A stretch of 64,000 nt of DNA from an uncultured Clostridia bacterium (GTDB taxonomy: Bacteria; Bacillota; Clostridia; TANB77; CAG-508): the NCBI GenBank assembly GCA_944387425.1, contig CALXEV010000002.1, positions 13,673-77,672 on the forward strand, written 5' to 3'. Shown here piece after piece: positions 31,465 to 52,592 of this stretch; within the stretch, counting starts at the first letter, position 1; each line of letters starts with the position of its first letter. Position numbers and translations under genes: made by a program. The notes under the pieces were generated by a model. That model worked only from the letters and a program-made list of their open reading frames with translations, ran no database searches and was not told the origin of the DNA.

Positions 31465-31487
31465 AATTTATGAAAGGAGAAAATCGC

Positions 31488-35079: not shown

Positions 35080-35149
35080 TATAATAGGAAAACTAGATGA
35101 TAAAATAATAAACTTAAAATTTTCGGAAGATGAAAGAAAAGAGGTTCTT

Positions 35150-35635
35150 ATGAAAAAAAGAATTGCTATAATATCTGTTATATTTCTGGTTTTAGCATAT
35201 ATAATATTTAATGCTATAAGTTATGCTAATGCCACACTAACAGTACACTTAGAAACTGCAGATACGAGTAATGTTGGCTATGGAATAGGAAATCCATTAC
35301 AACAGGGAATTAATATTTGGGATTTACGAAATACTGCAAACAAGAAAAATTTATATTGTATTAGGGCAGATTACTCAGATACATGGAATAATGATGGAAG
35401 AACAACTGATGTAAATTATAATTTATCATATGACTTGCAAAATGATAGAGAAAAAATATTAAATTATTTAACAGACAATGGAAATGATGGAGATGAATTA
35501 TTAAAACAATTATTAAATCCATCAGGAAATGCATATAGACAATTATTGTGGTTATTTGATAATGCATATCTAGAAGAGGAAGATGCTGAAACATATTTAA
35601 ATAATCTAGGTCTATATGATTCAAAGACATTATAG
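35150..35635 (+). pseudogene. N-terminal fragment of the thioester-domain adhesin (signal peptide plus the Cys-bearing half of the TED)
   Basis: The fragment starts MKKRIAIISVIFLVLAYIIFNAISYANA (signal peptide; RBS aagagg) and contains the NLYCIRAD Cys motif. It ends at TAG 35633-35635, while the downstream frame is already open from 35620. Confidence 0.75.
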
Positions 35636-38900: not shown

Positions 38901-41865
38901 AAACTATACAATTGATGAAACAGAAGTGCCAGAAGAATATGAAAAAGTAATTACAGGAGATGCAACTGTAGGGTTTATAATAACAAACAAATATACACCA
39001 GGAGAAACATCAGTAACTGTAAATAAAGCATGGGTAGACGAAAATGACAAAGATGAACTTAGACCAGATTCAGTAGAAATAGCATTATTAGCAAATGGAG
39101 ATGAAATACAGACAGCGACATTAACTGGAGATGATTGGACACATACATTCACAGGATTACCATTAAAAAAAGATGGTGTAGAAATAGAATATACAGTAGT
39201 TGAAAAAACACGAGTACCTGGATATACATCAAGTGTTACAGAAAACTCAAATAATAATTTTACAATAACTAATACACACAAAGTAGAAAAAATATTTGAC
39301 TTGGCATTAAGAAAATACATAACAAAAATAAACAATAATACATTAGAGAGTTTAAGTATACCAACAAGAATACCAAATATAGATACAAGTAGATTAAACC
39401 CAAGAGCAGATGCTGCAACAACTACAGCAACATATAAACACAAAAAGGATCCAGTATTAGTAGCAGAAGGAGATATTGTAACATATGAGATAACTATATA
39501 TAATGAAGGAGAAAAATCAGGATATGCAAGTCAAATAATAGATCAATTACCAACAGGTCTAATATATTCTCCAAGTACCACAGTATCTTCAAAAGATCCA
39601 GAAGGAAATAATAAGAATACATACAATGTGACATATGATCCAACAGAAAATAAAGTAATATTTGACATAGTAAATACTCCTGAAAATCCAGCAAAAGATT
39701 TACAACCATTTGAAACAAAACTAGATTATGAAACACTAGAAATAAAATGTAAAGTTGTATTAAAACCACAAATGGGAGAAACAAATATATTAACAAATGT
39801 AGCATGGATAAGTGGGGCATATGACACAGAAGATGATGAAGTAGCAGTAGATAGAGATTCTGAGCCAGAAAATCATCCAGATGTAAACAAAGACAACATG
39901 GAAGATTATAAAGGAAATGAAAACAACAAAGATGATTTAACAGATAAAGACTATCACTATGAAGGTGAGCAAGATGATGACGACTTTGAGAAACTATATG
40001 TTCAAATCTTTGACTTATCATTAAGAAAATTTATAGTAAAAATAAATGATGATGAATATATTAGCAAAAAAGGAGATTATATTAGAGAGCCAATAGTAGA
40101 TGTAAGCCCATTAGTAAATAAAACAGATACAACATCAATATATAATCATCCCAAAGAACCTGTAGGAGTAAAAGTTGGAGATAGAGTAACATATGTAATA
40201 AGAGTATATAACGAAGGTGAATTAGACGGATTTGCAAGTGAAGTAAAAGATTATTTGCCACCATATCTAACATTTATAGAAGATAGTGAAATAAATGAAC
40301 AATATGGATGGACAGTATCAGAAGATGGAAGAGTAGTAACAACAACATATTTAACAGATAAAGAAATAAGCAAATTCAATGGAACAGAACTTGATTATGA
40401 AGACTTACAAATAGAATGTCTAGTATCAGAAGAAGCACCAGTACATGAAAACTTGACAAACATAGCAGAAATATCAGAATATAAATATGGAGACACAATA
40501 GTACCAGAAGACATAGATTCAACGGCAGATAATATAGATGAAAACTTACCAGGAGATGAAGATTTACCAGGATATAAAGATGATGAAATAGGTCAAGACT
40601 ATGTACCAGGAAACGAAGATGATGACGACTTTGAAAAAATATATGTAAAACAATTTGATTTAGCATTAAGAAAATTCATAACACAAGTACAAGATCAAAA
40701 CATAACAAACAGAGAACCACAAGTAAAATATGAAAATGGACAAATAAGTTATGAACATACAAAAGAACCATTAACAGTACATGTAGGAGATGTAGTAACA
40801 TACACATTAAGAATATACAATGAGGGAGAAGTAGACGGATATGCAAGTGAAATAAGTGATGATATTCCTGAATTTTTGGAATTCTTACCAGAAAATGAAA
40901 CAAACATTAATTATATGTGGAAAATGTATGATGAGAATGGGCAAGAAACAGATAATGTAGAAGAAGCAAAAACAGTAAAAACAACATATCTAGCAAGAGA
41001 AAATAATAAAGATGGAGCAGAAACAAACTTGCTTGTTGCATTTAATGGAACAACACTACATTACAAAGATATAAAAATAGCATTTAGAGTAAAAGACCCA
41101 AATTCAAACACATATATAATAACAAACCATGCACAAATCTCAGAAGATACAGATGAAGACGGAAAACCAGTAGATGATATAGACTCAACACCAGACGAAT
41201 GGAATGAAGGAGAAGATGATCAAGATATTGAAAATGTAAAAGTAGAATATTTTGATTTATCACTACTAAAATTTGTATCAAAAGTAATAGTAATAGAAGA
41301 TGGAAAAGAAACAGTAACAGAAACAGGATATAATGGACATGAAGATCCAGAACCAGTTGTAAAAGTAGAATTACATAGAAATAGTCTAAATGATGTAATA
41401 GTAAAATTCGGATATGGAATAACAATAACAAATGAAGGAGACATCCCAGGATACGCAACAGAAATCACAGACTATGTACCAGAAGGATTAAGATTCGAAG
41501 CAGCAGACAACCCATTATGGACAGACGAAGGAAATAATGTAATATCAACAAAACAACTAGAAAACACACTATTACAACCAGGAGAAAGTGCAACAATAGA
41601 AGTAATATTAACATGGATAAATAGTGAAGATAACTTAAATGAAAAAACAAATACAGCAGAGATATCAGAAGATGATAATCCATATGATGTACCAGATAGA
41701 GACTCAGTACCAGATAATGAAATACCAGGAGAAGACGATATAGATATAGCAAAAGTAATATTATTAGTATCAACAGGTACACCAAAAACATATTTCATCT
41801 TAACATTAGGACTATTAACAATAGTATTAGTTGGAGTAATCTTAATTAAGAAATTTGTTCTATAG
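35944..41865 (+). CDS. Giant cell-surface adhesin: the Gln half of the thioester domain, 10 CnaB-type repeats, 4 DUF11-like repeats and a C-terminal TM anchor
   Basis: The reading frame is open from 35620 and there encodes IAVQKAAVWYFTN, a TQxA(I/V)W-like thioester Gln motif. Ten units of about 97 aa follow (PETIxIPVxKxWxDxxNQDGIRP...TFTDLPKY...YTVKE...GFTVTNTH). Four units of about 215 aa then start FDL(A/S)LRKF and carry GDxVTYxIxIYNEGE...DxLP. The tail is VSTGTPKTYFILTLGLLTIVLVGVILIKKFVL. Confidence 0.9.
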   Translation: MVNAEISSDYDYNIVGPIVIDKNSTSDYSISMTVTNQSGTTIHSSNYSFVDKNGNSLGSVTLKDLVGRSGGFYVKVARNLATTVNIKIEITSNVTKKTLWLKGTESSNQIKLSGTGEAEQPIVEISEAPETETVELTGTPETINIPVTKSWSDSNNQDGLRSTSVTVTLYANNVAVNGKTLTLNSSNSWKGTFTDLPKYKNGIEITYTVKENNPPTGYTPTVSGSITNGFTVTNTHTPETIEIPVTKIWADNNNQDGIRPLSVTVALYADNVAVSGKTLTLNSSNGWKGTFTDLPKNKDGREIVYTVRENNPPTGYTPTVNGSISSGFTVTNTHTPETINIPVEKIWEDNNNQDRIRPASVIVTLYADNEAVGGKSLTLTSSNSWRGTFTNLPKYKDGEIIKYTVKEEIVPSEYEVSVDGTIEEGFTVTNTHIPETIDIPVTKEWVDNNNQDGIRPNSITVKLYADDIVVEGKILTLNASNGWRGTFTDLPKYKNGNEIKYTVKEDTELSGYIPTIDGSMADGFIITNTHAPETIEIPVTKVWSDSENQDGIRPTSVIVALYADGVAVSGKTITLNSSNGWKGTFTDLPKYKNGNKIKYTVKEDEPPIGYTPSVSGSAEEGFIVTNTHTSENVDIPVEKAWVDSENQDGIRPTSVIVALYADGVAVSGKTITLNSSNGWKGTFTDLPKYKNGNKIKYTVKEDEPPIGYTPSVSGSVEEGFTVTNTHVPDTIEIPVTKTWSDNGDQDGIRPTSVTVTLYANDVAVEGKTITLNTENQWKGTFADLPKYQDGKEIVYTVKEDNPQEGYTVEITGTIEEGFTVTNTHKPETISIPVEKVWVDNENQDGIRPPEITVTLYANDMAVEGKTITLNAENEWKGTFADLPKYESGEEIKYTIKENDVLSGYKVAIGGTVTDGFTITNTHETDETSITVTKVWEDNNNQDGIRPPEITATLYANEKPKETITLSEGKWTHTFTGLPVMENGTKINYTIDETEVPEEYEKVITGDATVGFIITNKYTPGETSVTVNKAWVDENDKDELRPDSVEIALLANGDEIQTATLTGDDWTHTFTGLPLKKDGVEIEYTVVEKTRVPGYTSSVTENSNNNFTITNTHKVEKIFDLALRKYITKINNNTLESLSIPTRIPNIDTSRLNPRADAATTTATYKHKKDPVLVAEGDIVTYEITIYNEGEKSGYASQIIDQLPTGLIYSPSTTVSSKDPEGNNKNTYNVTYDPTENKVIFDIVNTPENPAKDLQPFETKLDYETLEIKCKVVLKPQMGETNILTNVAWISGAYDTEDDEVAVDRDSEPENHPDVNKDNMEDYKGNENNKDDLTDKDYHYEGEQDDDDFEKLYVQIFDLSLRKFIVKINDDEYISKKGDYIREPIVDVSPLVNKTDTTSIYNHPKEPVGVKVGDRVTYVIRVYNEGELDGFASEVKDYLPPYLTFIEDSEINEQYGWTVSEDGRVVTTTYLTDKEISKFNGTELDYEDLQIECLVSEEAPVHENLTNIAEISEYKYGDTIVPEDIDSTADNIDENLPGDEDLPGYKDDEIGQDYVPGNEDDDDFEKIYVKQFDLALRKFITQVQDQNITNREPQVKYENGQISYEHTKEPLTVHVGDVVTYTLRIYNEGEVDGYASEISDDIPEFLEFLPENETNINYMWKMYDENGQETDNVEEAKTVKTTYLARENNKDGAETNLLVAFNGTTLHYKDIKIAFRVKDPNSNTYIITNHAQISEDTDEDGKPVDDIDSTPDEWNEGEDDQDIENVKVEYFDLSLLKFVSKVIVIEDGKETVTETGYNGHEDPEPVVKVELHRNSLNDVIVKFGYGITITNEGDIPGYATEITDYVPEGLRFEAADNPLWTDEGNNVISTKQLENTLLQPGESATIEVILTWINSEDNLNEKTNTAEISEDDNPYDVPDRDSVPDNEIPGEDDIDIAKVILLVSTGTPKTYFILTLGLLTIVLVGVILIKKFVL
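36358..39290 (+). repeat. Tandem coding repeat array of 10 CnaB-type units with a period of about 291-294 nt
   Basis: Repeated PETI(E/N)IPV(T/E)K...TNTH blocks. Units 5 and 6 are identical over 220 nt (37576-37795 matches 37870-38089). Confidence 0.9.
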
Positions 41866-41877: not shown

Positions 41878-41914
41878 TTGTCAAGAGGGGCGGTCCTTCT
41901 TGACAAATTTTTTT
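41878..41914 (+). terminator. Module-1 repeat copy acting as the adhesin terminator
   Basis: ttgtcaagaggggcggtccttcttgacaa (41878-41906) has perfect 8-bp outer arms and is followed by attttttt. Confidence 0.8.
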
Positions 41915-41941
41915 GACAAATTATGTTAAGCATGATATAAT
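41913..41941 (+). promoter_or_regulatory. Consensus sigma-A promoter with extended -10 for the 42004-45804 gene pair
   Basis: TTGACA (41913-41918), a 17-nt spacer ending in TGa, and TATAAT (41936-41941). Confidence 0.7.
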
Positions 41942-42003: not shown

Positions 42004-43278
42004 ATGGATGAAAGAAGATTAAGAAGTAGTATATTAGTCAAAAAATATGAAGACAAAGATGGAGTAAAAAAAGTCTTACGAAATAAATATGGTACAGTTA
42101 ATAATGCTATACAAATGTTTGAAAATGGTGAAATTACAGAGTTTGAAATAGAAAATTTATTAGAAAAAATGATAGATGTTGTTATTTCATCTAAAGACTT
42201 AACGAGAAGAGAAATTGCAAGATATTTAATGATATATCATGCACTTATTGATGGTGGATTTTATAATGATGTTGGACATAAATATCAATATGATACTAAC
42301 CAAGAAAGATTTGTAAATATAGACGAATTACAAAGAAGAATAAACGAATTAAAACCAATTGCAAAAAGTGTAATAGAACTTAGATATGGAATATCATCTG
42401 GGAAATTAAACACTCAACCTGAAACTAAGGAAGCATTAGGCCTTTCAACAGCATCAGTATCTGTAATAGAAAATGAAGCTTTAAAAAAATTACGTTTTAG
42501 TTTACCCAAAGGAATTGTTGAAGATGCTTATAGTGAAGATATAATGTATGAACTAGAAGAATTAATAAAACAACCTGATGATTATTTTGTGGAATATAGT
42601 GAGCCAGATAAGTCATTTTATAAAATGTATCCAATTTGGGATTTGAATCTATGTATAGGTACATATAATGCATTAAAAAGAGCTAATGTAAATAATTTGG
42701 CAGATTTATCAACAATGAGTGAAGAAGAATTAATGCAAATTAAAATGATAGGAAAATTAAAGATAAAAGAAATTAGAGAAAAGCTAACTTTATATGGGTT
42801 AGATATTAGATATGGTACTGAACAAGTTGAATCAAATAGCACAAGTAGAATTAAAAGGATTAGTTCAGAAAAAATTCAAAAAATAAGAAAATCTGCAAAA
42901 AGAAAATTACAATTGATGGAAGCTTATGGAAGAGGAAAGGAAGAATGTCTCGATATTACAGAAATGTTTGACCCTGAGTCAGTAATACCTGCAACAATTC
43001 ATGAACTAGAAGATTTACAACCAGAAGAATATGAACTTGCAATAAGGTATATAGAATATAGAAAACAATTAGAGCTAGGCGATACTGAGGTAGGAGATGA
43101 GACTTCATTAGGTCCTCAGACATCAAAGCTAGAAACATTTATAAAAGCAAAGAAATCTAAAAAGCAAAGAGTTGATGAATTAAAAGAATTAATAAAAGCT
43201 CAAGATGCCAAGATTGAAGCTTTAACACAATTATTAATAGAAAATGGAATAAAAATACCAAAAGAATTACAAAAATAA
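42004..43278 (+). CDS. Chimeric protein with a sigma-70 region-4-like HTH, an RNA polymerase alpha C-terminal-domain-like HhH domain and a coiled-coil tail
   Basis: SVIELRYGISSGKLNTQPETKEALGLSTASVSVIENEALKKLR matches the region 4.2 pattern (xRxGLxxxxxxTxxExxxxxGxSxxxVxxIExxALxKLR). IWDLNLCIGTYNALKRANVNNLADLSTMSEEELMQIKMIGKLKIKEIREKLTLYGL aligns with alpha-CTD (LDLSVRSYNCLKRAGI...L...EEL..I.N.GKKSL.EI...L...GL). Confidence 0.7.
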   Translation: MDERRLRSSILVKKYEDKDGVKKVLRNKYGTVNNAIQMFENGEITEFEIENLLEKMIDVVISSKDLTRREIARYLMIYHALIDGGFYNDVGHKYQYDTNQERFVNIDELQRRINELKPIAKSVIELRYGISSGKLNTQPETKEALGLSTASVSVIENEALKKLRFSLPKGIVEDAYSEDIMYELEELIKQPDDYFVEYSEPDKSFYKMYPIWDLNLCIGTYNALKRANVNNLADLSTMSEEELMQIKMIGKLKIKEIREKLTLYGLDIRYGTEQVESNSTSRIKRISSEKIQKIRKSAKRKLQLMEAYGRGKEECLDITEMFDPESVIPATIHELEDLQPEEYELAIRYIEYRKQLELGDTEVGDETSLGPQTSKLETFIKAKKSKKQRVDELKELIKAQDAKIEALTQLLIENGIKIPKELQK

Positions 43279-43302
43279 TATAAGAAATATAAGGGGGTTC
43301 AA

Positions 43303-45804
43303 ATGATTAGTAAATTTTATTTAGATAAAGAAAAAGATATAATTGTTAATTTGAAAAAAACTAACCAAGATGAAATTACATATGTGTTAGAAACACCAAA
43401 TCATAATACAGGAAACTTAATTACAAATCTAGCAAAATTATGCGGACTTAAAACAATAAAAAACGAAAATGATATGAAAATAATAACAGGAAAAATTCCT
43501 GCAAGTATAAATGGTGACAATGAAGAAGTATATATATTTAGATTAGGTGGAATAAAAATAGCAAATATTTATGAAGATAGAGTAGAAATAAAAGCAAAAA
43601 TTCCAGCCATAAATAAAACACTTATGTCTCAAACTAAAAATTATAAACTCCCAATAGAAAAAACAATTGTAAAAACATATATTTTAAAAAAATCAAAATT
43701 TAGAACAGACTTACATACCCATATGAATGCAAATTTATCTCCTGATTGTCTGATTGCATTAGGAATTTCAGAACAAGTAAGATATCCATTATATTATATT
43801 AAAAAATTAAATCTTAAATTAAGTTCAAAACAAGAAAAAAATATATATGAACAACGAAAAAATGTTGAAAAACAATTTGAAAATAGTCCATTACAAGGCA
43901 AATATTTAACAAGAAAAATAGATGATAATACTTTTATAAACTTTGCAGACTTCATATTAAATAATATAGAAAATGCACAATATAATATAGAAAAAATAAG
44001 AACAAGTTTAGCAATATTAAAAGATGGACAAGCAGTTTTTACTAATCTTGAAAAATGCTATATTTACAGATATGTATTTGCAAAAGGAATTCCTTCAACA
44101 GAAAAAATAGAACTAACAGAAGAATTAATAAAAACTATTCCAGAAGCAGACATTGTAAAAATGGTATTAAAAATGCAAGATGACAAAAAAGAAGGTAGTC
44201 CATATAAAAACAATACTTTAAGACAGAACAAACTATTGTGGGTTGCAAGAGAATATAAAAAGCAAGGAATAAAATATGTAGAAATTGCAGATACAGATTT
44301 AGCAAAATTAGGAGAACCAGCAGTAAAATTATTACAAGAAGTTCATGATATTTTTCCACAGATAGAAAAAGAAACAGGAGTAAAAATTAGATTTTTATTA
44401 GCAATAAGAAGAATTCCGTTAACAATTATAAAAGACCAAAAAACAAGTAGTACATATTTAAAAGACAATATAAATGTTTTAAAAGCAGTTGCCAAAAGTC
44501 CATATGTTGTAGGTAGTGATTTTATTGGAGAAGAAATCAACGATATTTCAGACTTACAACCAGTAATTCAAAAAATTGTAAAATATGTAAATCAAGAAGA
44601 TAAAGACTTCACAATAAGAATTCACGCAGGAGAAAATGACAGTTTAAGAGATAATGTAAGAAAATCAATTATGTGTGTGAAAGAAGCACTTGTAGATGGA
44701 CAACCAATGCCTAGATGTAGAATAGGACATGGATTATATTCAGAAAACTTAAACAGTGAAGAAGGAAAAGAATTATTAGACTTAATGAAAGAAACTGGTG
44801 TTGTAATTGAATTTCAATTAACATCAAATGTAAGATTAAATAATATTAGTGATTTATCAAATCATCCAATCAAGACATTTTTGAAAAATGGAATTAAATG
44901 TGTACAAGGAACAGATGGTTGTGGATTTTATGGTTCAGATACATTTGATGAACAATTAGCACTTCAAAATTTACTAGGTTTAACAAATAATGATTTTGAA
45001 AAAATGAGAAAAGTAGAAGATGAGATAATTGCTCATAGTGAAAATTTTTTTTTAGAAAAAAGCAAAAAGTTTGAACAATTTTTGAATGGAAGAAGCATAA
45101 AAGAAGCAATACTTGAATTAGAAGAGAAAAATATAAAAGAAACTGAAGGTCAAGAAGAATTAAGAATAACAAATAATATAGAAACAGAAAAAGAATTAAG
45201 CCAAAAAATTAAGCCATTACCAACAGATAAAGTTCCAGTAATAATTGCAGGTGGAAGCTTTAATACAAAAGGAAGAGAAACTGTTGTATCTGAAAATGGA
45301 ATTAAAATATTAAGACAATTAATAAAAAATGTTGATAGTGAAAACGCGTACTTTGTAATAGGTCATAAAATGCAAGGATATGAAAAGGCAATTGTAGACA
45401 TTTCAAAAGAGATGAATAAGAATTTTGAAATAGATGCAATAGTTCCAAAAGTAGTTACTCAAAAAGTAAAAAATAGGTTATTAGATGAAGAAGTAGATGG
45501 AATTTGTATTTCACTTGAAACAGAAGAATTAGGAATTTATAAAAGTTTTAATTATGAAATTTTTGAAAGAAGAAAATCAGTTGTAATTGCTTTCGATGGA
45601 AATTCCCCTGTTCTAAATCTTGTGCAAGAAGCCAAAAATGGAAAAGGAAAATCAAAAATATATGTAAATAAAGAAAATACATTATTACGAGAAAAGGCTG
45701 ATACACTTGAGGGATATGTTGTTCCTTTTGAAATGCAAGATAATCAAGATAATATAGTTAGCAAAATATTTGAGGATAATCCAGAAATTTTAAAACATAA
45801 TTAA
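43303..45804 (+). CDS. Large adenosine/AMP-deaminase-fold protein with an N-terminal extension and a C-terminal LOG/SLOG-like Rossmann domain
   Basis: The RBS is aaggggg. All metal and catalytic motifs are present: DLHTHMN (HxH, about 43710), IRIHAGEN (HAGE, about 44622), RIGHGLY, and QGTDGCGFYG (about 44911). The C-terminal roughly 190 aa read PVIIAGGSF...FVIGHKMQGYEKA...AIVPK...ERRKSVVIAFDGNSPVLNLVQEA. Confidence 0.75.
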   Translation: MISKFYLDKEKDIIVNLKKTNQDEITYVLETPNHNTGNLITNLAKLCGLKTIKNENDMKIITGKIPASINGDNEEVYIFRLGGIKIANIYEDRVEIKAKIPAINKTLMSQTKNYKLPIEKTIVKTYILKKSKFRTDLHTHMNANLSPDCLIALGISEQVRYPLYYIKKLNLKLSSKQEKNIYEQRKNVEKQFENSPLQGKYLTRKIDDNTFINFADFILNNIENAQYNIEKIRTSLAILKDGQAVFTNLEKCYIYRYVFAKGIPSTEKIELTEELIKTIPEADIVKMVLKMQDDKKEGSPYKNNTLRQNKLLWVAREYKKQGIKYVEIADTDLAKLGEPAVKLLQEVHDIFPQIEKETGVKIRFLLAIRRIPLTIIKDQKTSSTYLKDNINVLKAVAKSPYVVGSDFIGEEINDISDLQPVIQKIVKYVNQEDKDFTIRIHAGENDSLRDNVRKSIMCVKEALVDGQPMPRCRIGHGLYSENLNSEEGKELLDLMKETGVVIEFQLTSNVRLNNISDLSNHPIKTFLKNGIKCVQGTDGCGFYGSDTFDEQLALQNLLGLTNNDFEKMRKVEDEIIAHSENFFLEKSKKFEQFLNGRSIKEAILELEEKNIKETEGQEELRITNNIETEKELSQKIKPLPTDKVPVIIAGGSFNTKGRETVVSENGIKILRQLIKNVDSENAYFVIGHKMQGYEKAIVDISKEMNKNFEIDAIVPKVVTQKVKNRLLDEEVDGICISLETEELGIYKSFNYEIFERRKSVVIAFDGNSPVLNLVQEAKNGKGKSKIYVNKENTLLREKADTLEGYVVPFEMQDNQDNIVSKIFEDNPEILKHN

Positions 45805-45850
45805 ACTAAAAAATTAACAAATTTACTCAAAACACTTGACAAATGTGAAA

Positions 45851-45890
45851 AAAAGGTGTAAAGTATATTGGCATTACACCTTTTGTTGTT
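45851..45890 (+). terminator. Terminator after the deaminase gene
   Basis: An 11-bp stem, aaaaggtgtaa (45851-45861) pairing with ttacacctttt (45874-45884), followed by a T-rich tail. Confidence 0.7.
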
Positions 45891-45937
45891 TATAATAACG
45901 AAAATAAGTAATGCAACTAAAGAAAGAGGTAGTAATT

Positions 45938-46285
45938 ATGGAAAAGAAAGTAGAAATAAGTATGTTATGGCAAATTTATGGAAAGCTATTAACAGAAAAA
46001 CAGTATGAGTACATTGATTATTACTATAATGAAGACTTATCTTTATCAGAAATTGCAGAAAATGAAGGCATTACAAGACAAGCTGTAAGAGACATCATCA
46101 AGAAAGGAGAGAGAAAACTTTTCGAATACGAAGAAAAGCTATTGTTTATGAGAAAGACAATTAATCAAGAAAAACAAATACAACATATTTTACTTAATTT
46201 AAACAAAATTCAAAAAGACTCATCAGATAAACAAGTAACAAATATATTGGAAGAAGTTAAAAAAGAATTAAATTGTTTAGTCTAA
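45938..46285 (+). CDS. ylxM: YlxM/UPF0122 putative HTH protein of the SRP operon
   Basis: LLTEKQYEYIDYYYNEDLSLSEIAENEGITRQAVRDIIKKGERKL is typical of YlxM. The gene lies immediately upstream of ffh. ATG 45938 follows the RBS agaggt. Confidence 0.88.
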   Translation: MEKKVEISMLWQIYGKLLTEKQYEYIDYYYNEDLSLSEIAENEGITRQAVRDIIKKGERKLFEYEEKLLFMRKTINQEKQIQHILLNLNKIQKDSSDKQVTNILEEVKKELNCLV

Positions 46286-46305
46286 ACAAAAGATAGGAGG
46301 CAAGT

Positions 46306-47658
46306 ATGGCGTTTGAAGGATTATCATCAAGACTACAAGAAATAACAAGAAAAATCAGAGGAAAAGCAAGAATAACAGAATCAGATTTAAAAGAAATGCT
46401 AAGAGAAGTTAAACTTGCTTTGCTTGAAGCTGATGTAAACTATAAAATAGTTAAAGAATTTATAGCAAATATACAAGAAAAAGCCTTGGGTCAAGATGTA
46501 ATGAAATCATTAACACCAGGACAACAAGTCATAAAAATCGTAAAGGACGAAATGGTAGAATTACTAGGAGGAACTGAAAGTAAAATAAACTTTACTCCAA
46601 ATCCACCAACAATAATAATGTTAGTTGGATTACAAGGTTCTGGAAAAACAACTACAGCAGGAAAACTTGCTAATCTTTTACGAAAACAAGGTAAAAAGCC
46701 ATTACTAGTAGCATGTGATATATATAGACCAGCTGCTATAAAACAATTACAAGTAGTAGGAGCTCAGTTAAATATACCAGTATATGCTAATGAAACATCA
46801 AAAGATGTTGTGCATATTGCAAAACAAGCAATGAATGTTGCAATATCAAAATTAAATGATGTAGTAATACTAGATACAGCAGGAAGATTACACATTGATG
46901 ATGAATTAATGCAAGAACTAAAAAATGTAAAAGCAAGTGTAAAACCACATGAAATTTTGTTGGTAGTAGACTCAATGACTGGTCAAGATGCAGTAAATGT
47001 TGCACAAACTTTCAATGATGAAGTAGGAATTGATGGAGTAATATTAACAAAATTGGATGGAGATACACGTGGTGGTGCAGCACTTTCAGTAAAGAAAGTC
47101 ACTGGAAAACCAATAAAATTTGCAGCAACAGGTGAAAAGTTAAGCGATATTGAAGTATTTAATCCAGAAAGAATGACATCTAGAATACTTGGAATGGGTG
47201 ATGTGTTATCAATAATCGAAAAAGCCGAAGAAGCAATCACAGAGGAAGAAGCAGAAAAATTAGAAAAACAACTTAGAAAAAATGAATTAGACTTAGATGA
47301 TTATTTAGCACAAATCAGACAAGTAAAAAAGATGGGTTCACTATCATCAATATTAAAAATGTTACCAGGAATGAACAAAATAAAAGACTTAAATGTAGAT
47401 GAAAAAGAATTTGATAAAATTGAAGCAATTATTTGTTCAATGACTGTAGAAGAAAAAAGAAATACAAAATTATTAAATGGTAGTAGAAGATTACGTATTG
47501 CAAAAGGTAGTGGAACTACAGTTCAAGATGTTAACAAATTTATGAAATCATTTGAAATGACACAAAAAATGATGAAACAAATGAAATCAAATAAAGGTGG
47601 CATGAAAAACATGTTCAAAAACATGAACATGAATGATTTGAAAAATTTTAAGATGTAG
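46306..47658 (+). CDS. ffh: Signal recognition particle protein Ffh
   Basis: NG domain motifs are present (GLQGSGKTTTAGKLA, DTAGR, TKLDGDTRGGAALS), with a Met-rich M domain at the C-terminus. Confidence 0.96.
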   Translation: MAFEGLSSRLQEITRKIRGKARITESDLKEMLREVKLALLEADVNYKIVKEFIANIQEKALGQDVMKSLTPGQQVIKIVKDEMVELLGGTESKINFTPNPPTIIMLVGLQGSGKTTTAGKLANLLRKQGKKPLLVACDIYRPAAIKQLQVVGAQLNIPVYANETSKDVVHIAKQAMNVAISKLNDVVILDTAGRLHIDDELMQELKNVKASVKPHEILLVVDSMTGQDAVNVAQTFNDEVGIDGVILTKLDGDTRGGAALSVKKVTGKPIKFAATGEKLSDIEVFNPERMTSRILGMGDVLSIIEKAEEAITEEEAEKLEKQLRKNELDLDDYLAQIRQVKKMGSLSSILKMLPGMNKIKDLNVDEKEFDKIEAIICSMTVEEKRNTKLLNGSRRLRIAKGSGTTVQDVNKFMKSFEMTQKMMKQMKSNKGGMKNMFKNMNMNDLKNFKM

Positions 47659-47705
47659 TTATTAATTTTTTAAACTTATATAGAATAAAACGGAGGTGAA
47701 TTGTA

Positions 47706-47936
47706 ATGGTAAAAATAAGATTACAAAGAGAGGGAAAGAAAAAAGCTCCATTCTATCATATAGTAGTAGCTGATTCAAGATCTCCAAGAGATGGAAAAAT
47801 AATAGAACAAATTGGAACATATGATCCAATGACAGAACCATCAACAATAGTTCTAAACAAAGAAAAATTAGAACAATGGATAAAAAATGGTGCACAACCT
47901 ACAGATACAGTTAAAGCATTAATCAAAAATGCTTAG
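47706..47936 (+). CDS. rpsP: 30S ribosomal protein S16
   Basis: The N-terminus [31 protein letters not shown] is present and the gene sits in the conserved operon position. Confidence 0.95.
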
Positions 47937-47948
47937 TTGGAGGAAAAT

Positions 47949-48182
47949 ATGAAAGAGGTTTTAGAAACTATTATTAAAAACTTAGTCGACACTCCAGAAG
48001 CTGTTGATATAAAAGAAGTTGAAGGAGAAAAAAACATAATCTTTGAAGTAAAAGTTGCTGAAAAAGATTTTGGAAAAATAATTGGTAGACAAGGAAAAAT
48101 TGCACAATCTATAAGAACAGTAATGAAATCCGTTGCAAATAGAAAAGACAAAAAAGTTACTGTAGAATTTATAGAACAATAA
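47949..48182 (+). CDS. KH-domain RNA-binding protein (YlqC family)
   Basis: The KH GxxG motif is present (IIGRQGKIAQSIRTV) and the gene lies between rpsP and rimM. ATG 47949 follows the RBS ggagg. Confidence 0.88.
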   Translation: MKEVLETIIKNLVDTPEAVDIKEVEGEKNIIFEVKVAEKDFGKIIGRQGKIAQSIRTVMKSVANRKDKKVTVEFIEQ

Positions 48183-48211
48183 AAGTTATACCATGAAAGG
48201 AATGGTAGAAC

Positions 48212-48718
48212 ATGCAAAAAAGGCTAGAAGTTGGTCAAATTGTTAATACATTTGGTATAAAAGGAGAAGTTAAAGTAATGCCTTTTACAGATGATATAAC
48301 AAGATTTGACGACCTAGAAAAAGTATATGTTAAAACTAAAAAAGAAGAAAAACTATATAAAATTCAAAATGTGAGATATCACAAAAATATGGTATTAATC
48401 AAATTTGAAAATATAGAAACACCAGAACAAGCTGAATTGCTAAGAAATGCTTTTCTAGAAATAGACAGAGAAGATGCAATACCACTAGAAGAAGGAACAT
48501 ATTATATAGCTGATTTAATTGGTATGGAAGTATATTCAGATGATGGAAATAAGCTAGGAATAGTAGAAGACATCTATAATACTGGAGCAAATGACATATA
48601 TGTAGTAAAAAATGATTTAGGAAAACAAATTTTATTACCAGGAATCAAAGAGGTAATAAAAGAAGTTAACTTAGATACAGAAAAAATTACAGTACATCTT
48701 ATACCTGGATTGATTTAA
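48212..48718 (+). CDS. rimM: 16S rRNA processing protein RimM
   Basis: The N-terminal VGQIVNTFGIKGEVKV and a PRC-barrel C-terminus are present, in the conserved operon position. Confidence 0.92.
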   Translation: MQKRLEVGQIVNTFGIKGEVKVMPFTDDITRFDDLEKVYVKTKKEEKLYKIQNVRYHKNMVLIKFENIETPEQAELLRNAFLEIDREDAIPLEEGTYYIADLIGMEVYSDDGNKLGIVEDIYNTGANDIYVVKNDLGKQILLPGIKEVIKEVNLDTEKITVHLIPGLI

Positions 48719-48736
48719 AAAAGTATGGAGGAAAAA

Positions 48737-49462
48737 ATGCAATTTGATGTGTTAACACTTTTCCCAGAAATGTTTGAGCCAATAAAGCAAAGCATAATAG
48801 GAAGAGCTGAAAAGAAAAATTTAATAAATCTAAATTTAGTAAATATTAGAGATTTTTCAAATAACAAACACAAAAAAGTAGATGATACCCCATATGGTGG
48901 TGGAGCAGGAATGGTTATGCAAGCTGATGTTGTATATGATGCTTATAAATCATTAAATACAAAAGATGCAAAAGTAATTTATTTAACTCCACAAGGAAAA
49001 GTTTTAAATCAAAAAAAGGTAGAAGAACTAAGCAAAGAAAAGCATCTTATTCTACTTTGTGGACATTATGAAGGGATTGACCAAAGAGTAATAGACAAAA
49101 TTGTAGATGAGGAAATATCTATAGGTGATTATGTACTAACAGGTGGTGAAATACCAGCAATGGTATTAATAGATACAGTTAGTAGATATGTAGAAGGTGT
49201 TTTAAGTAAAGGTTCAACTTCAGAAGAATCATTTTCACAAGGATTACTTGAATATCCTCAATATACAAGACCTGAAATTTTTGAAGATGAAAAGGTACCA
49301 GAAATATTACTAACAGGCCATCACGAAAAAATAAGCAAATGGAGAAGAGAGCAATCTTTAAAAAATACATATTTAAAAAGACCAGAACTTTTAAAAAATG
49401 TAGAACTATCTAAAGAAGAAAAAGAATATATAAAAAAATTAAATAATGATGCAAAGTGCTGA
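48737..49462 (+). CDS. trmD: tRNA (guanine37-N1)-methyltransferase
   Basis: FDVLTLFPEMF, DDTPYGGGAGMVM, LLCGHYEGIDQRV and SIGDYVLTGGE are present. ATG 48737 follows the RBS ggagg. Confidence 0.95.
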   Translation: MQFDVLTLFPEMFEPIKQSIIGRAEKKNLINLNLVNIRDFSNNKHKKVDDTPYGGGAGMVMQADVVYDAYKSLNTKDAKVIYLTPQGKVLNQKKVEELSKEKHLILLCGHYEGIDQRVIDKIVDEEISIGDYVLTGGEIPAMVLIDTVSRYVEGVLSKGSTSEESFSQGLLEYPQYTRPEIFEDEKVPEILLTGHHEKISKWRREQSLKNTYLKRPELLKNVELSKEEKEYIKKLNNDAKC

Positions 49463-49511
49463 CTTTCAATTCAAGGCACCGCTTGCATAGAAAAAGAAGG
49501 AGGTAAATACG

Positions 49512-49997
49512 ATGGATATCATAAAATCAATAGAACATGAACAACTAAAAAACTCTATTCCTGACATCAAAGTTGGAAATACAGTTAGAGTACATGTTAA
49601 AATAAAAGAAGGAAACAAAGAAAGAATCCAAGTATTTGAAGGAATTGTAATAAAAAAACAAGGTGGAGGATTAAACGAAACATTCACAGTAAGAAAAATA
49701 TCTTATGGTGTAGGTGTTGAAAAAACATTCTTAATTCATTCACCATTAGTTGAAAAAGTAGAATTAGTTAGAGTTGGTAAAGCTAGACGTGCTAAACTTT
49801 ACTATTTAAGAGAAAGAACAGGAAAAGCTTCTAAGACTAAAGAATTAGTTGGAGCAAGAATAGAAGATAAAGAAATCACTCTTAAAGAAGATTTAGCTGA
49901 AGAACCAGCTAAAGAAGCTGTTGAAACACCAGTTGAAGCAGAACCAGCAAAAACTGAAGAAGCAGTTGCTGAGAATACAGAAAAAGAAACAAAATAA
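49512..49997 (+). CDS. rplS: 50S ribosomal protein L19 with an acidic Ala/Glu/Pro-rich C-terminal extension
   Basis: The L19 core ([37 protein letters not shown]...[16 protein letters not shown]) is followed by about 45 extra residues (...[36 protein letters not shown]). Confidence 0.93.
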
Positions 49998-50008
49998 TTT
50001 AATAAAAA

Positions 50009-50035
50009 ATGCATCTCACAAGGGGTGTATTTTTT
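50009..50035 (+). terminator. Probable terminator of the rpsP-rplS operon
   Basis: The hairpin atgcatctc/ggggtgtat has 9 pairs, 3 of them G-U, and is followed by ttttt. Confidence 0.5.
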
Positions 50036-50195
50036 ATTTTTCTAAAATAGATTTATTAGGTAAAATTCACAAAAATTTCAAATAAAAAATGAACAAAAAA
50101 ACTTTACAAAAATGCACAAGTAATATAAAATAAAAAAGAATAAATAGGATAGAATAAAATGCAAAAGATTTAGATAGAAAGGATAGACGCAAAAG

Positions 50196-52592
50196 ATGAA
50201 AGAAAAAAATGAATTAAGTTATAAAGACTTAAAAATGACATGTAATGAAAACATGTTTCACTTTGAGACGACAAAAGAATTAGAACCTATAAATGATGGA
50301 ATAGGCCAAGAAAGAGGAATAAAAGCTTTAGAGTTTGGAATAGATATAAATGTAAAAGGATATAACATTTATCTTGAAGGACCTAGTGGTGTTGGAAAGA
50401 CAATGTATACTAAAAATTATTTAGAGAGTATTGCACCAAAAAAGAAAGTTCCAAATGATTGGTGTTATATATACAATTTTCAAAATCCAAATGAACCAAT
50501 TGCAGTATCATTGCCTGCAGGACAAGGTAAAGAATTCAAAGAAAGTATGGATGGTTTCATAAAAGAAGTAAAAAAAGACATCAAAAAAACTTTTAATGCA
50601 GATGATTTTGAAAAAGAAAAAGCTTTAATTAAAAAAGAATTTGAAGAAAAAAGAGAAAGCTTATTAACAAAGTTAAATGAAGATTCTTTAAAATATGGCT
50701 TCCATGTAAAATCAGCTCAAAATGGTATCTATATGTTTCCAGTAGTTGATGGAAAAGTTGTTCAAGAAGAAGAATTTGAAAAATTAGATGAAGAAATAAA
50801 AAAACAATATGAAGAAAAATCAGTAATAGTACAACAACAAATAATGGAAGTAATAGGACAAATAAAACAAATAGAAAGAGAATCAGATAAAAAGGTATCT
50901 GAATGGCAATCAAATGTTGCATTATTAACAGTAAATGCGCATATAAACTATATAAAATCTAAATATAAAAGAAATAAAAAAATTAATCAATTTTTAAATG
51001 ATGTAAAACAAGATGTTTTGAAAAATGTATCTTACTTTTTAGAAGAAGACAAACCACAACAACCTCAACAGGCTCAACCATCTCCAATGCAAAGAAAACA
51101 AGACCCATGCTTAAATTATAGAGTAAATTTGTTTATAGATAATAGTACAAGAGAAGGTTGCCCAGTAATAATGGATTCTAATTACACATATCAAAATTTA
51201 TTTGGAAAATTAGAATATGAAAATTACTATGGTTCATTGAAAACAGATTTTACAATGTTAAAACCAGGATTAATGCACAAAGCAAATGGAGGATATATAA
51301 TATTCCAAGCAAAAGATTTATTAACAAATGCAATGTGTTATGAAGAACTAAAAAGAATATTAAGGGTAAAAGAAATTGCAATAGATAATACAATGGAACA
51401 ACGTTCATCAATGGCAATGATATCATTAAAACCAGAGCCAATTCCATTAGATGTAAAAGTAATACTTATAGGAAATGCTAGTATTTATCATACACTATTA
51501 TCAATGGATTCTGATTTTAGAAAACTATTTAAAATCAAAGTTGAATTTGAAGAAACAGCTCCAATTGATGAAACAAATGTAAATAAACTTGCAAGATTTG
51601 TTCACACATTCTGCGAGCAAGAAGAATTACCACCACTTGACAAATCAGCAATGGCAAGGCTTGTAGAATTTGCTTCAAGATTAGCAGGAGATAAAGATAA
51701 ATTATCTACAAGATTTACAGATATAGGTCAAGTAGTTGGAGAAGCAGGAACATGGGCAAAACTAGACAAAGCAAAAGTTGTTACAAAACAATATATAGAT
51801 AAAGCATTAGCAGAAAGAATTGACAGAATAAAGAAATATGATGAAAAATATACAGAAATGATAAAAGAAAACACTTTATTAATAAATACAAAAGGTTCTT
51901 TAGTAGGAGAACTAAATGGATTGACAGTAATGACAATTGGAGATTACACTTTTGGAAAACCATCAAAAATTACAGTTAATACTTATACTGGAAAAGGTGG
52001 AGTTGTAAACATAGAAAGAGAAGTTGAACTTTCTGGTTCTACACACTCAAAAGGTGTATATATATTATCTGGATATTTAGGAGAAATGTTCGCACAAGAC
52101 ATTCCATTATGCTTAACAGCAAGTATATGTTTTGAACAATTATATAATGGTGTTGATGGAGATAGTGCATCAAGTACAGAACTATATGGACTATTATCAA
52201 GCTTATCAGGAATTCCTATTAAACAATCAATTGCGGTAACAGGTTCAGTAAATCAAAAAGGACAAATACAACCAATTGGTGGAGTAAATGAAAAAATTGA
52301 AGGATATTTCCAAATTTGTAAAATGCGTGGATTAGATGGTTCTCATGGAGTTATGATACCTGTTCAAAATGTAAATAATCTTCAATTATCAGATGAAATA
52401 GTAGATGCCGTAAAAAATAAGAAATTCCATATTTATGCAGTTTCTACAATAGAAGAAGGAATTGAAGTATTAACAGGAGTACCAGCTGGAAAGAAAGATA
52501 AAGATGGAAAATTCCCAGCAGGAACTGTAAATCATTTAGTTTATGAAAAATTAAAGAAATATGCAAAAATTGTAGAGAAAAATTGTCAGTAG
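50196..52592 (+). CDS. Lon-like protease of the LonC type (AAA-like domain with a coiled-coil insertion, plus a Lon S16 proteolytic domain)
   Basis: The Walker A motif is GPSGVGKT. A long charged coiled-coil insert follows it. The C-terminal Lon protease domain reads GDSASSTELYGLLSSLSGIPIKQSIAVTGSVNQKGQIQPIGGVNEKIEG, containing the Ser-Lys dyad. Confidence 0.8.
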   Translation: MKEKNELSYKDLKMTCNENMFHFETTKELEPINDGIGQERGIKALEFGIDINVKGYNIYLEGPSGVGKTMYTKNYLESIAPKKKVPNDWCYIYNFQNPNEPIAVSLPAGQGKEFKESMDGFIKEVKKDIKKTFNADDFEKEKALIKKEFEEKRESLLTKLNEDSLKYGFHVKSAQNGIYMFPVVDGKVVQEEEFEKLDEEIKKQYEEKSVIVQQQIMEVIGQIKQIERESDKKVSEWQSNVALLTVNAHINYIKSKYKRNKKINQFLNDVKQDVLKNVSYFLEEDKPQQPQQAQPSPMQRKQDPCLNYRVNLFIDNSTREGCPVIMDSNYTYQNLFGKLEYENYYGSLKTDFTMLKPGLMHKANGGYIIFQAKDLLTNAMCYEELKRILRVKEIAIDNTMEQRSSMAMISLKPEPIPLDVKVILIGNASIYHTLLSMDSDFRKLFKIKVEFEETAPIDETNVNKLARFVHTFCEQEELPPLDKSAMARLVEFASRLAGDKDKLSTRFTDIGQVVGEAGTWAKLDKAKVVTKQYIDKALAERIDRIKKYDEKYTEMIKENTLLINTKGSLVGELNGLTVMTIGDYTFGKPSKITVNTYTGKGGVVNIEREVELSGSTHSKGVYILSGYLGEMFAQDIPLCLTASICFEQLYNGVDGDSASSTELYGLLSSLSGIPIKQSIAVTGSVNQKGQIQPIGGVNEKIEGYFQICKMRGLDGSHGVMIPVQNVNNLQLSDEIVDAVKNKKFHIYAVSTIEEGIEVLTGVPAGKKDKDGKFPAGTVNHLVYEKLKKYAKIVEKNCQ

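Follow-up and report, generated by a model that had tools for sequence, protein, structure and literature searches.

The gene at 43303-45804 of the window, the whole stretch of 64,000 nucleotides analysed from an uncultured Clostridia bacterium, encodes an uncharacterised three-part enzyme in which a core of the adenosine deaminase (ADA) type is preceded by a new N-terminal domain and followed by a SLOG domain. Judging by its sequence, the probable activity of this ADA-SLOG protein is a ligand-controlled deamination of adenine nucleotides. We give an even chance to the fuller reading of a vertically inherited, ligand-gated adenine-nucleotide deaminase, which in the organism would keep the pool of adenine nucleotides and NAD-breakdown products under regulation, or arrest growth in response to stress. 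In such a mechanism, the zinc-dependent ADA core would deaminate a phosphorylated adenine nucleotide (ATP, AMP and ADP-ribose are the candidates) to its inosine analogue, whereas the SLOG domain would bind an adenine- or NAD-derived nucleotide, with ADP-ribose or a relative as the best guess, and act as an allosteric switch of catalysis; the beta-rich N-terminal domain would possibly serve assembly or regulation. We infer in this way the substrate, the ligand and the direction of regulation, and the proposed logic newly combines that of Cad1 (CARF-ADA) with that of ThsA (SIR2-SLOG). The protein is built from the following parts:

43303-45804, + strand: ADA-SLOG gene with its three domains (N-domain, ADA, SLOG), from the ORF list and translation
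43303-43692, + strand: N-terminal domain, about residues 1-130, beta-rich with helices (AF2 model, pLDDT 88.7)
43693-45102, + strand: adenosine/AMP-deaminase-fold catalytic domain, about residues 131-600 (Pfam PF00962 and PDB profile search)
43795-44202, + strand: enlarged insertion, about residues 165-300, which separates the first strand of the ADA barrel from its remainder, a lineage-specific enlargement
45103-45228, + strand: charged ADA-SLOG linker, about residues 601-642, of low confidence in the C-terminal model and variable in the family alignment
45229-45777, + strand: predicted C-terminal SLOG (LOG/DprA/TRPM-MHR-like) Rossmannoid domain, about residues 643-825 (AF2 and Foldseek)

The 833-aa reading frame on the + strand starts with ATG and has no internal stops, and a protein of public metagenomes (P0001) is 100% identical to it. 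The initial annotation did not recognise the fusion of ADA and SLOG as characterised, and no description of this architecture was found in the searchable literature either, the SLOG classification of Burroughs et al. 2015 lying outside that scope.

The catalytic domain scores clearly within the superfamily. Pfam A_deaminase (PF00962) matches residues 314-570 with an E value of 5e-20 and 72.3 bits against a cutoff of 27, and the family profile has the canonical bacterial Add 6n91 as its best match in the PDB (2e-21), with Cad1 (9ebt) at 2e-7 and no RdrB entry among the matches at E<=0.01. The metal-binding and catalytic set had been read as intact, which holds for this protein and for its family as a whole, as H138, H140, H441, E444, H476 and D538 are invariant across 47 members. 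All the motifs originally quoted, here and in the C-terminal domain, were found in the 833-aa translation. Those of the active site are:

43708-43728, + strand: DLHTHMN, residues 136-142, with zinc-binding H138 and H140; N142 occupies the position of mouse-ADA Asp19 (HMMER alignment to 6n91)
44614-44637, + strand: IRIHAGEN, residues 438-445, with H441 (zinc) and E444 (proton shuttle), invariant in the 47 members
44719-44733, + strand: RIGHG, residues 473-477, with catalytic H476; R473, G475 and H476 are invariant
44905-44928, + strand: QGTDGCGF, residues 535-542, with zinc ligand D538; G539 occupies the position of mouse-ADA Asp296 (alignments)

The second of these aligns to the HAGE motif of the Plasmodium ADA and the last one to the SDDP/TDDP motif of solved ADAs. 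Other basic or polar residues are also invariant in the family (R256, R363, R370, R439, N451, R473, S508 and N509). The long insertions noticed between the HxH and HAGE motifs amount to about 110 residues beyond the Pfam profile, and they are real, because about 175 residues separate the HxH motif from the Pfam match further downstream, which begins at residue 314, equivalent to profile position 77. The enlarged segment ends in a family motif, QxxF..E..Y..R, whose R256 is invariant and whose Y253 is kept in 45 of the 47 members, and it brings the ADA segment to 473 aa, compared with about 380-400 aa in the main clade.

The most telling feature of the active site concerns two aspartates, Asp19 and Asp296 of the mouse enzyme, which hold adenosine and whose mutation in canonical ADA impairs activity (PMC12669630). 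By the alignments, their equivalents in our protein are N142 and G539. None of the 47 members has Asp at either position: the first one is occupied by Ser in 18, Ala in 17, Thr in 5 and Asn in 4, and the second one by Gly in 43, Ser in 3 and Cys in 1, next to an invariant D538. In TaqCad1 both positions are substituted too, and the enzyme deaminates ATP and not adenosine, while reverting the two residues abolishes activity (PMC12669630). The earlier idea of a nucleotide rather than adenosine as substrate thus gains support from the replacement of both adenosine-binding aspartates, as in the ATP-specific Cad1, and from such sequence evidence we infer that the substrate would be a phosphorylated adenine nucleotide and not free adenosine.

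The C-terminal domain was resolved only by structure prediction, since sequence searches with Pfam and with a profile against the PDB came back empty. It has no Pfam match, LSDAT_prok (PF18171) included, at E<=1, and a profile of 34 sequences retrieved just noise from the PDB (DHFR and Der, with E values about 1). Its AF2 model (pLDDT 89.8), when compared with the PDB by Foldseek, found members of the SLOG superfamily in all of the top 50 matches (LOG, TRPM MHR1/2, Moco-carrier and DprA proteins), with TM-scores of about 0.45-0.59; 26 matches reached E<=1e-3, the best one being 1ydh at 6e-5. On the predicted model, therefore, the domain is a SLOG fold, as had been proposed from the motifs alone:

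Residues 645-652: PVIIAGGS
Residues 685-696: VIGHKMQGYEKA
Residues 712-716: AIVPK
Residues 755-761: ERRKSVV
Residues 761-777: VIAFDGNSPVLNLVQEA

Among relatives, 11 of 34 family C-termini match LSDAT_prok at E<=1 (the best at 8.6e-6; P0239 reaches 20.3 bits against a cutoff of 25.4), and the Pfam families found in this way, LSDAT_prok, LSDAT_euk and YAcAr, are sensor-type SLOGs. Two of the glycine-rich loops are kept, IIAGGS and VIGHKMQGYEK, whereas the third motif is degenerate (DGNSP in our protein, GGGGV in the main clade), so ligand binding in the clade of the query may differ or be lost; because the domain is under purifying selection, it can still be argued to be functional. The fold matches include ADPR-bound structures of TRPM2, a likeness to TRPM MHR1/2 that holds at the fold level only (TM about 0.5). 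It is accompanied by the matches of relatives to both LSDAT_prok and LSDAT_euk, and by the presence in some family members of a C-terminal NUDIX domain of the ADPR-pyrophosphatase type, comparable to the C-terminal NUDT9-homology domain of TRPM2. The query protein, however, has no NUDIX domain, and the output would be that of an enzyme and not of an ion channel.

The N-terminal 130 residues or so had been left unassigned and they stay so: the fold is confidently modelled by AF2, without a Pfam match, and the best Foldseek match in the PDB (E 0.31) is not significant. A resemblance to type III secretion chaperones, with a probability up to 0.72 and a TM-score about 0.3, is too weak to count as evidence. 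No CARF domain was found by Pfam, nor among significant PDB matches of the N-domain model, from a library that includes Cad1 structures. With the A6 profile, the domain was detected in distant members of the family as well.

The genomic surroundings are those of a core gene. The ADA-SLOG gene sits between pheST and ylxM-ffh, and the order pheS-pheT-...-ADA-ylxM-ffh-rpsP-rimM-trmD-rplS-LonC is common to the query and to the locus of an orthologue with 85.4% identity, a value within the 82-93% of the neighbouring genes. The dN/dS ratio of the whole gene is 0.04-0.08, with 0.00-0.10 for the N-domain, 0.04-0.11 for ADA and 0.00-0.04, the lowest, for SLOG. Orthologues with 62-86% identity are present in 22 GTDB species genomes, and of the candidates scored in a first search, 5634 proteins, ordinary ADAs included, reached E<=0.001; together with the dN/dS, these figures indicate conservation far beyond chance. 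All in all, it looks like a vertically inherited and strongly constrained chromosomal gene among housekeeping genes. Purine-salvage genes, whose absence nearby had been pointed out, are indeed missing among the annotated genes of 31428-52592, the rest of the window having been screened with PADLOC only. The signals that may drive expression lie upstream, along with another gene:

41913-41941, + strand: candidate sigma-70-type promoter, TTGACA-17-TATAAT with TG (pattern scan, 12/12 matches)
42004-43278, + strand: 424-aa gene with sigma-70 region 4 and RNAP alpha-CTD (Pfam), 24 nt from the ADA-SLOG gene
43291-43297, + strand: Shine-Dalgarno AAGGGGG, 5 nt before the ATG of the ADA-SLOG gene (read from the sequence)

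The promoter, predicted solely by its match to the consensus, likely drives both genes, which are probably co-transcribed in the query genome; the next strong one in the pattern scan (45868-45896) precedes ylxM. The initial annotation had looked to the 424-aa gene as a partner kept by homologs, which it is not, being absent beside every orthologue checked (22 of 22 genome loci and the 85%-identical orthologue locus). This gene and a 1973-aa DUF11 protein are an insertion specific to the query genome.

An unlikely alternative is that of the anti-phage sensor-effector in one polypeptide originally proposed, where SLOG would sense an infection signal (a cADPR isomer, ADPR or another nucleotide) and ADA would convert ATP/dATP to ITP/dITP, arresting growth as Cad1 or RdrB do. 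Its appeal comes from the resemblance to Cad1/CAAD, since both are large multidomain proteins with a nucleotide sensor fused to an ADA-fold deaminase, both have lost Asp19 and Asp296, and both have a NUDIX hydrolase as partner in some members, which mirrors the known partner of CAAD/Cad1, a Nudix hydrolase converting ITP to IMP. As in ThsA of type I Thoeris (SIR2-SLOG), moreover, effector and SLOG sensor share a single polypeptide. RdrB of RADAR, likewise an oversized ADA-fold protein, is reported (PMC9994260) to convert ATP/dATP to ITP/dITP. The differences are nonetheless many. In Cad1 the sensor is an N-terminal CARF and not a C-terminal SLOG, the substituting residues are G and N in TaqCad1 but N/S/A and G in our family, and the two ADA domains are distant, ours being nearer to canonical Add. 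Furthermore, the ADA-SLOG protein carries an extra N-terminal domain without a known fold match, and its gene is chromosomal, core-like in the query lineage and devoid of any type III CRISPR-Cas linkage in the window, where PADLOC found no Cas10, Csm or Cmr among 41 proteins and just a weak Cas3-HD-like match (6e-7). The effector of ThsA is SIR2 instead of ADA, its SLOG structures are not among the top 50 fold matches, and its SLOG has been described in a review as STALD-type, whereas that of our relatives is LSDAT-type by Pfam; neither SIR2 nor TIR occurs in the protein or its neighbours, and no ThsB is nearby. RdrB lacks a SLOG domain, and the locus shows neither an RdrA ATPase partner nor a PADLOC match to RADAR. 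By analogy, the best reading is that of a protein that would work like Cad1 or ThsA while being a member of neither.

The locus itself speaks against an effector of a defence island: PADLOC gave no match for the gene and its seven neighbours, which are housekeeping genes, synteny and divergence rate are equally housekeeping, the three domains are under strong purifying selection, and the 424-aa gene is not conserved. A phage origin and a plasmid origin were also discarded, as no relatives were found in IMG/VR (with the query and the main-clade alignment as probes) or in PLSDB (tblastn). A single-gene immune function is compatible with housekeeping surroundings. In the query lineage, the gene does not resemble an anti-phage system that is mobile and dependent on a partner, and a dedicated defence role is possible there but unsupported by its locus.

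More distant relatives offer a more varied picture. The three-domain layout recurs at 22-37% identity, the family reaches from gut Clostridia to Ignavibacteriales, and 162 representative matches, full-length and fragments, fall below an E value of 1e-30; metagenomes were scanned with the main-clade alignment A3. Some settings are of the conflict type: relatives adjoin Cas9-Cas1-Cas2 and a resolvase (loci L028-L030), a sister-clade member (P0150) occupies a tight three-gene operon on a mobilisable Mob_Pre/TnpV contig, and a secreted protein of 4275 aa, which also has a Fic domain, contains the module. A role in defence or as a toxin would explain these settings equally well or better, and a conflict role for the module is possible. 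On the other hand, recurrent co-location with defence genes is absent in this limited sample of 143 neighbours from about 45 loci, where the defence-specific matches listed were Cas9 and Cas1 at one locus, others such as mad8, mad3 and dCTPase being generic or unresolved, and where no signal-generating partner (TIR, cyclase or CD-NTase) recurs. A small protein, c7, is encoded immediately downstream at four loci and close by at another three or four, yet it was rejected as a universal partner because the window lacks it and because it is also found after unrelated proteins of 654 aa and 706 aa. Other relatives point to metabolism. ADA-SLOG-NUDIX fusions form three representative clusters whose NUDIX is nearest to NadM-Nudix, NrtR and NUDT9, a Nudt16-like NUDIX adjoins a relative at locus L068, and others adjoin cvpA-purF or, in one subclade (L053, L054, L057 and L059), pncB, nadE and nadM. 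These NAD-salvage and NUDIX associations belong to distant subclades with about 25% identity and not to the query lineage. Homologs in metabolic or riboswitch-controlled operons had been named as an argument against the anti-phage proposal: the first part applies to the NAD-salvage subclade, but riboswitch control does not, the only Rfam match in the window being a T-box before pheS.

A broader proposal, quite unlikely in our estimation, is that of a hitherto unrecognised class of stand-alone SLOG-gated deaminases of ATP (or ADPR/NAD), with an effector logic like that of Cad1 but with a NAD-derived signal such as ADP-ribose in place of cyclic oligoadenylate. When NAD-breakdown products accumulate, be it through phage attack, NADase immunity or stress, the adenine-nucleotide pool would be turned into inosine nucleotides, the NUDIX domain that some members carry would process the product, and giant secreted proteins would have taken over the module as a toxin domain.

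It is very improbable that we are just dealing with an ordinary housekeeping adenosine or adenine deaminase, whose accessory domains would serve oligomerisation or localisation without ligand gating or a nucleotide substrate. The core-gene context and the purifying selection would suit it, as would the profile search, in which canonical adenosine deaminases of bacteria and Plasmodium come out as the closest solved relatives; with canonical Add and eukaryotic AMP deaminase, the best PDB sequence matches, the protein shares the (beta/alpha)8 zinc-hydrolase fold and the catalytic residues. Nevertheless, it scores 55.7 bits against a cutoff of 216.55 for the Add equivalog TIGR01430 of NCBIfam and falls far under the cutoff of ten ADA models out of ten, it carries two extra domains and the insertion, both adenosine-binding aspartates are missing family-wide, and the SLOG and N-terminal domains are under no less constraint than the catalytic one.

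The LOG family has PGGxGTxxE as its catalytic motif. The least probable reading of all, a bifunctional salvage enzyme in which a LOG/PpnN-like SLOG would cleave AMP or another nucleotide to base and ribose-5-phosphate for ADA to deaminate the released adenine or adenosine, can appeal to the best matches of the C-terminal fold, which are LOG phosphoribohydrolases, some solved with AMP bound, and to the relatives beside cvpA-purF and NAD-salvage genes, but that motif is absent (the corresponding segment is FDGNSPVLNLVQE, with DGNSPVLNL in the query and GGGGVVRDM in the main clade), which makes a catalytic SLOG unlikely, TM-scores to LOG are only about 0.5 without sequence-level similarity to LOG in the PDB, and neither the protein nor its relatives match the Lysine_decarbox (LOG) Pfam family, the Pfam matches of the relatives being of the sensor type.

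Returning to the ligand-gated deaminase, enzymes of this kind, of which Cad1/CAAD and RdrB are examples, have only recently been added to what is known of bacterial immunity and of the control of nucleotide pools, and the ADA-SLOG family would bring to them a third type of sensor, SLOG, and a new N-terminal domain. The aspartates missing family-wide provide a simple sequence marker that may separate nucleotide-specific from nucleoside-specific ADA-fold enzymes. NAD/ADP-ribose turnover may be connected with purine-nucleotide deamination, a link not described before, to which the NUDIX fusions and the genes pncB/nadE/nadM beside some relatives point. The hypothesis is directly testable with one recombinant protein. 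Eukaryotic AMPD is a nucleotide deaminase of roughly 800 aa under allosteric regulation and, if the gene is a housekeeping one in low-GC gut Clostridia, the ADA-SLOG enzyme may be a bacterial counterpart of regulated AMP deaminase.

The gene at 43303-45804 (+ strand) is an intact ORF of 833 aa with an ATG start and a strong Shine-Dalgarno sequence (AAGGGGG) 5 nt before it, in a window with a G+C content of 28%. Its product, ADA-SLOG, combines a complete adenosine deaminase (ADA) catalytic apparatus with a SLOG fold and a third conserved domain, all three of them under strong constraint. In an exhaustive search of 1.84 billion representatives, 858 proteins scored E≤1e-3, 162 of these E≤1e-30. 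Many are 750-1000 aa long, show 22-37% identity and span all three domains (N-domain, ADA, SLOG); the family is fairly widespread and uncharacterised. The genomic surroundings of ADA-SLOG in the window are as follows:

31154-31385, + strand: T-box leader upstream of pheS-pheT (Rfam RF00230, 114.5 bits)
31428-32567: pheS
32567-34930: pheT
35063-35635: 190-aa ORF
35944-41865, + strand: 1973-aa DUF11-repeat protein (TIGR01451), a probable surface protein
42004-43278, + strand: 424-aa protein with sigma-70 region 4 (residues 113-164) and RNAP alpha-CTD (residues 207-262)
43303-45804, + strand: ADA-SLOG
Downstream of ADA-SLOG: ylxM, ffh, (rpsP, KH), rimM, trmD, rplS, LonC

A putative sigma-70-type promoter with a perfect match to the TTGACA-17-TATAAT consensus (41913-41941) lies ahead of the 424-aa gene, the gap between this gene and ADA-SLOG is 24 nt, and a further strong putative promoter occurs only ahead of ylxM, an arrangement suggesting that both genes are probably co-transcribed in the window. 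The presence of sigma-70 region 4 and RNAP alpha-CTD in a single 424-aa protein is an unusual fusion. The largest ORF in the window (2499 aa) maps at 5295-12794 (+ strand). An Rfam scan of the window found nothing besides the pheS T-box, with no riboswitch ahead of ADA-SLOG.

The locus of an 85%-identical orthologue (L024) has the order pheS-pheT-83aa-197aa-ADA-ylxM-ffh-rpsP-KH-rimM-trmD-rplS-...-LonC, with an extra 100-aa ORF ahead of LonC and neither the 1973-aa nor the 424-aa gene, the two together being an insertion relative to L024; the 1973-aa gene is also missing at the syntenic position in L006, another orthologue locus. The initial annotation had named the upstream 424-aa gene as a partner, a reading that did not hold: the gene is missing not only in L024 but also beside the orthologue in all the GTDB species loci (0/22), and therefore the proposed partner is a genome-specific insertion. 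In gut Clostridia MAGs (L001-L022), many related species carry the orthologue in another conserved block, composed of an HtrA-like protease, an M23-peptidase-like protein, a TadA-like cytidine deaminase, ADA-SLOG, a cohesin-domain protein and a sortase; two housekeeping settings thus occur in the lineage, and ADA-SLOG has moved between them.

ADA-SLOG diverges at the rate of its housekeeping neighbours. Between the window and L024 its identity is 85.4% (pheS 81.9, pheT 85.1, trmD 82.7, LonC 86.7 and ffh 93.2), and against L006 it is 79.3% (pheS 80.3, pheT 82.3). Close orthologues give an overall dN/dS of 0.04-0.08 (SLOG 0.00-0.04, N-domain 0.00-0.10, ADA 0.04-0.11). This divergence rate and the low dN/dS, together with the lack of relatives in IMG/VR and PLSDB and of any riboswitch, mark it in this lineage as a chromosomal gene that is inherited vertically and kept under functional constraint.

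The contexts of distant members are heterogeneous, and it is here that the initial reading of ADA-SLOG as a one-polypeptide defence effector finds some support, since some relatives occur in conflict settings. In the metagenome loci L028-L030, Cas9-Cas1-Cas2 genes lie directly 3' of ADA-SLOG, and genes for a resolvase and a P-loop protein precede it. Since a related locus, L027, carries uvrA where these three have the CRISPR genes, the Cas cassette was inserted next to ADA-SLOG. A member of the sister clade, P0150, is part of a tight operon of three genes (303aa-ADA-157aa) on L070, an 8.4-kb contig that also carries a Mob_Pre relaxase, TnpV and DUF6414 and is a mobilisable element. Moreover, a 4275-aa ORF (L052:2156-14983, + strand) encodes a signal peptide, a hydrophobic stretch and the N-domain of the family, as well as ADA (2661-3017), SLOG (3067-3253) and, after them, a Fic domain (HPFFDGNGR; matched by Fic proteins in PDB), and its sequence looks like that of a multi-effector secreted toxin reusing the ADA-SLOG module. 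P0209 (1779 aa) resembles this protein and has a glycine-rich, hydrophobic C-terminus.

Against the defence reading stand the housekeeping synteny, the lack of a PADLOC match to ADA-SLOG and the lack of a recurring partner: a census of 143 neighbouring genes (up to two on each side in ~45 non-redundant loci) revealed no universal partner and no recurring TIR, cyclase or CD-NTase family. Other members also have housekeeping settings (e.g., L069: radA-cvpA-purF, mla-alr-dnaB). On balance, the defence reading is partly supported, and a dedicated anti-phage role for ADA-SLOG is less probable than a physiological one.

Among 41 window proteins, PADLOC gave isolated single-model matches (DpdF-like 1e-86, PDC-S01 5e-65, RT-protease-like 1.5e-15 and pVip-like radical SAM 5e-11), all located outside 42004-52592 and none among the genes adjoining ADA-SLOG. 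An uncharacterised family of ~150-aa proteins with 766 homologues and no Pfam match (L032:5795-6268, L033, L034, L070:3590-4063, L068:6825-7067, L024:2272-2730, L019:14197-14649) is encoded directly 3' of ADA-SLOG in several lineages that are not related to each other, and elsewhere its genes overlap the 3' ends of those for unrelated proteins of 654 and 706 aa; the window has no member.

The motifs quoted in the initial annotation were all found in the translation, in the order and positions claimed. The sole Pfam domain of ADA-SLOG is A_deaminase (PF00962, residues 314-570, E 5e-20, 72.3 bits vs a cutoff of 27), and the HxH motif (residues 138-140) lies ~175 residues ahead of this match; the long insertion claimed for the first part of the ADA barrel is therefore real. 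The nearest PDB matches of the ADA family profile are canonical bacterial Add (6n91, 2e-21) and Plasmodium ADA, more distant ones being ADAL/N6-mAMP deaminase (3e-12) and AMP deaminase (1.5e-10), and still more distant Cad1 (9ebt, 2e-7; 9c67, 5e-6), with no match to RdrB among PDB sequences. All NCBIfam adenosine-deaminase equivalog models fell far under their cutoffs (best 55.7 bits vs 216.55). ADA-SLOG thus belongs to the ADA/AMP-deaminase superfamily and fails the tests for a canonical Add.

In a 47-member alignment, the catalytic residues H138, H140, H441, E444, H476 and D538 are invariant, as are R256, E327, D406, E411, N451, R473, E503, S508 and N509. HMMER alignments to solved ADAs (HLDG vs HMNA; TDDP/SDDP vs TDGC) place mouse-ADA Asp19 at query N142, which is S, A, T or N in the family, and Asp296 at G539 (G 43, S 3, C 1), with Asp at neither position in any member (0/47). 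Those two positions are also substituted in TaqCad1 (Gly264 and Asn549), which deaminates ATP and not adenosine, AMP or ADP, and whose ATP deamination is abolished when both are changed back to Asp (PMC12669630). Because of this shared replacement, we infer that the family substrate would be a phosphorylated adenine nucleotide rather than adenosine. A plain adenosine deaminase, to which the closeness to Add might point, is improbable.

A Pfam search of the C-terminal domain (residues ~643-825) gave no match, nor did a 34-sequence profile against PDB sequences. An AlphaFold2 model from the same 34-sequence alignment (pLDDT 89.8, pTM 0.88), searched with Foldseek against PDB, gave SLOG-superfamily proteins as all of its best 50 matches, including LOG phosphoribohydrolases (1ydh, 6e-5; 5its; 5zbl, with AMP), the MHR1/2 region of TRPM8/2/3/4 with ADPR-bound TRPM2, Moco-carrier proteins and DprA. 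Moreover, several Pfam SLOG families are matched among the 34 family C-termini: LSDAT_prok by 11 (best 8.6e-6), LSDAT_euk by four, YAcAr by three and LDcluster4 by two. Since model and relatives agree, the SLOG assignment originally proposed is supported at the fold level, and placement within the LSDAT clade is only suggestive. Two of three glycine-rich SLOG motifs are retained in the query (IIAGGS, VIGHKMQGYEK), and the third is degenerate in its clade (DGNSP vs GGGGV in the main clade). A catalytic, LOG-like SLOG, which the phosphoribohydrolase matches would favour, is likewise improbable, since the LOG catalytic motif PGGxGTxxE is missing. The N-domain (residues 1-130), kept across the family, is predicted as beta-rich with helices (pLDDT 88.7) and, as anticipated, resisted assignment, with no significant Foldseek match of its model in PDB (best E 0.31). 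Altogether, the earlier domain interpretation was confirmed.

Several relatives are linked to NAD and ADP-ribose. In the metagenome loci L053, L054, L057 and L059, pncB is the divergently transcribed neighbour of ADA-SLOG(-NUDIX) genes. In L053 and L054 nadE follows pncB, and L054 adds a NadM-Nudix gene (2qjo, 2e-71); this NAD-salvage cluster might be under NrtR control. A NUDIX domain of ADP-ribose type forms the C-terminus of the members in L053, L055 and L057 and of three representative clusters (P0250, P0265, P0267); its closest curated relatives are NadM-Nudix, human NUDT9 and NrtR, a repressor that responds to ADPR. A Nudt16-like NUDIX gene lies directly 3' of ADA-SLOG in an Ignavibacteriales genome (L068); NUDT16 is reported to remove IDP and ITP (PMC2875033). 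CAAD/Cad1 is likewise known to pair with a Nudix hydrolase, one that turns ITP into IMP.

ADA-SLOG resembles Cad1 and ThsA in uniting a sensor domain with a nucleotide-pool effector, but it belongs to neither, as it lacks the CARF domain and type III CRISPR locus of the former and the SIR2 domain and ThsB of the latter; unlike the RdrB system, it has no RdrA. Full-text literature searches, with the primary SLOG classification paper outside their reach, found no description of the fusion. ADA-SLOG would be a ligand-sensor-fused nucleotide deaminase, a variant of a kind already known. The ADA domain would deaminate an adenine nucleotide, with ATP, AMP and ADP-ribose as candidates, whereas the SLOG domain would bind a nucleotide, our best guess being ADP-ribose or a relative in view of a fold like that of TRPM2, the fusions to ADPR-type NUDIX domains and the NAD-salvage genes next to some members. 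Such binding may gate catalysis, as CARF does in Cad1 or SLOG in ThsA. Given the housekeeping synteny, the divergence rate and the lack of partners or defence neighbours, we favour, with roughly even confidence, a physiological role in the organism, where ADA-SLOG may control the pool of adenine nucleotides and NAD-breakdown products, or bring about a stress-induced arrest.
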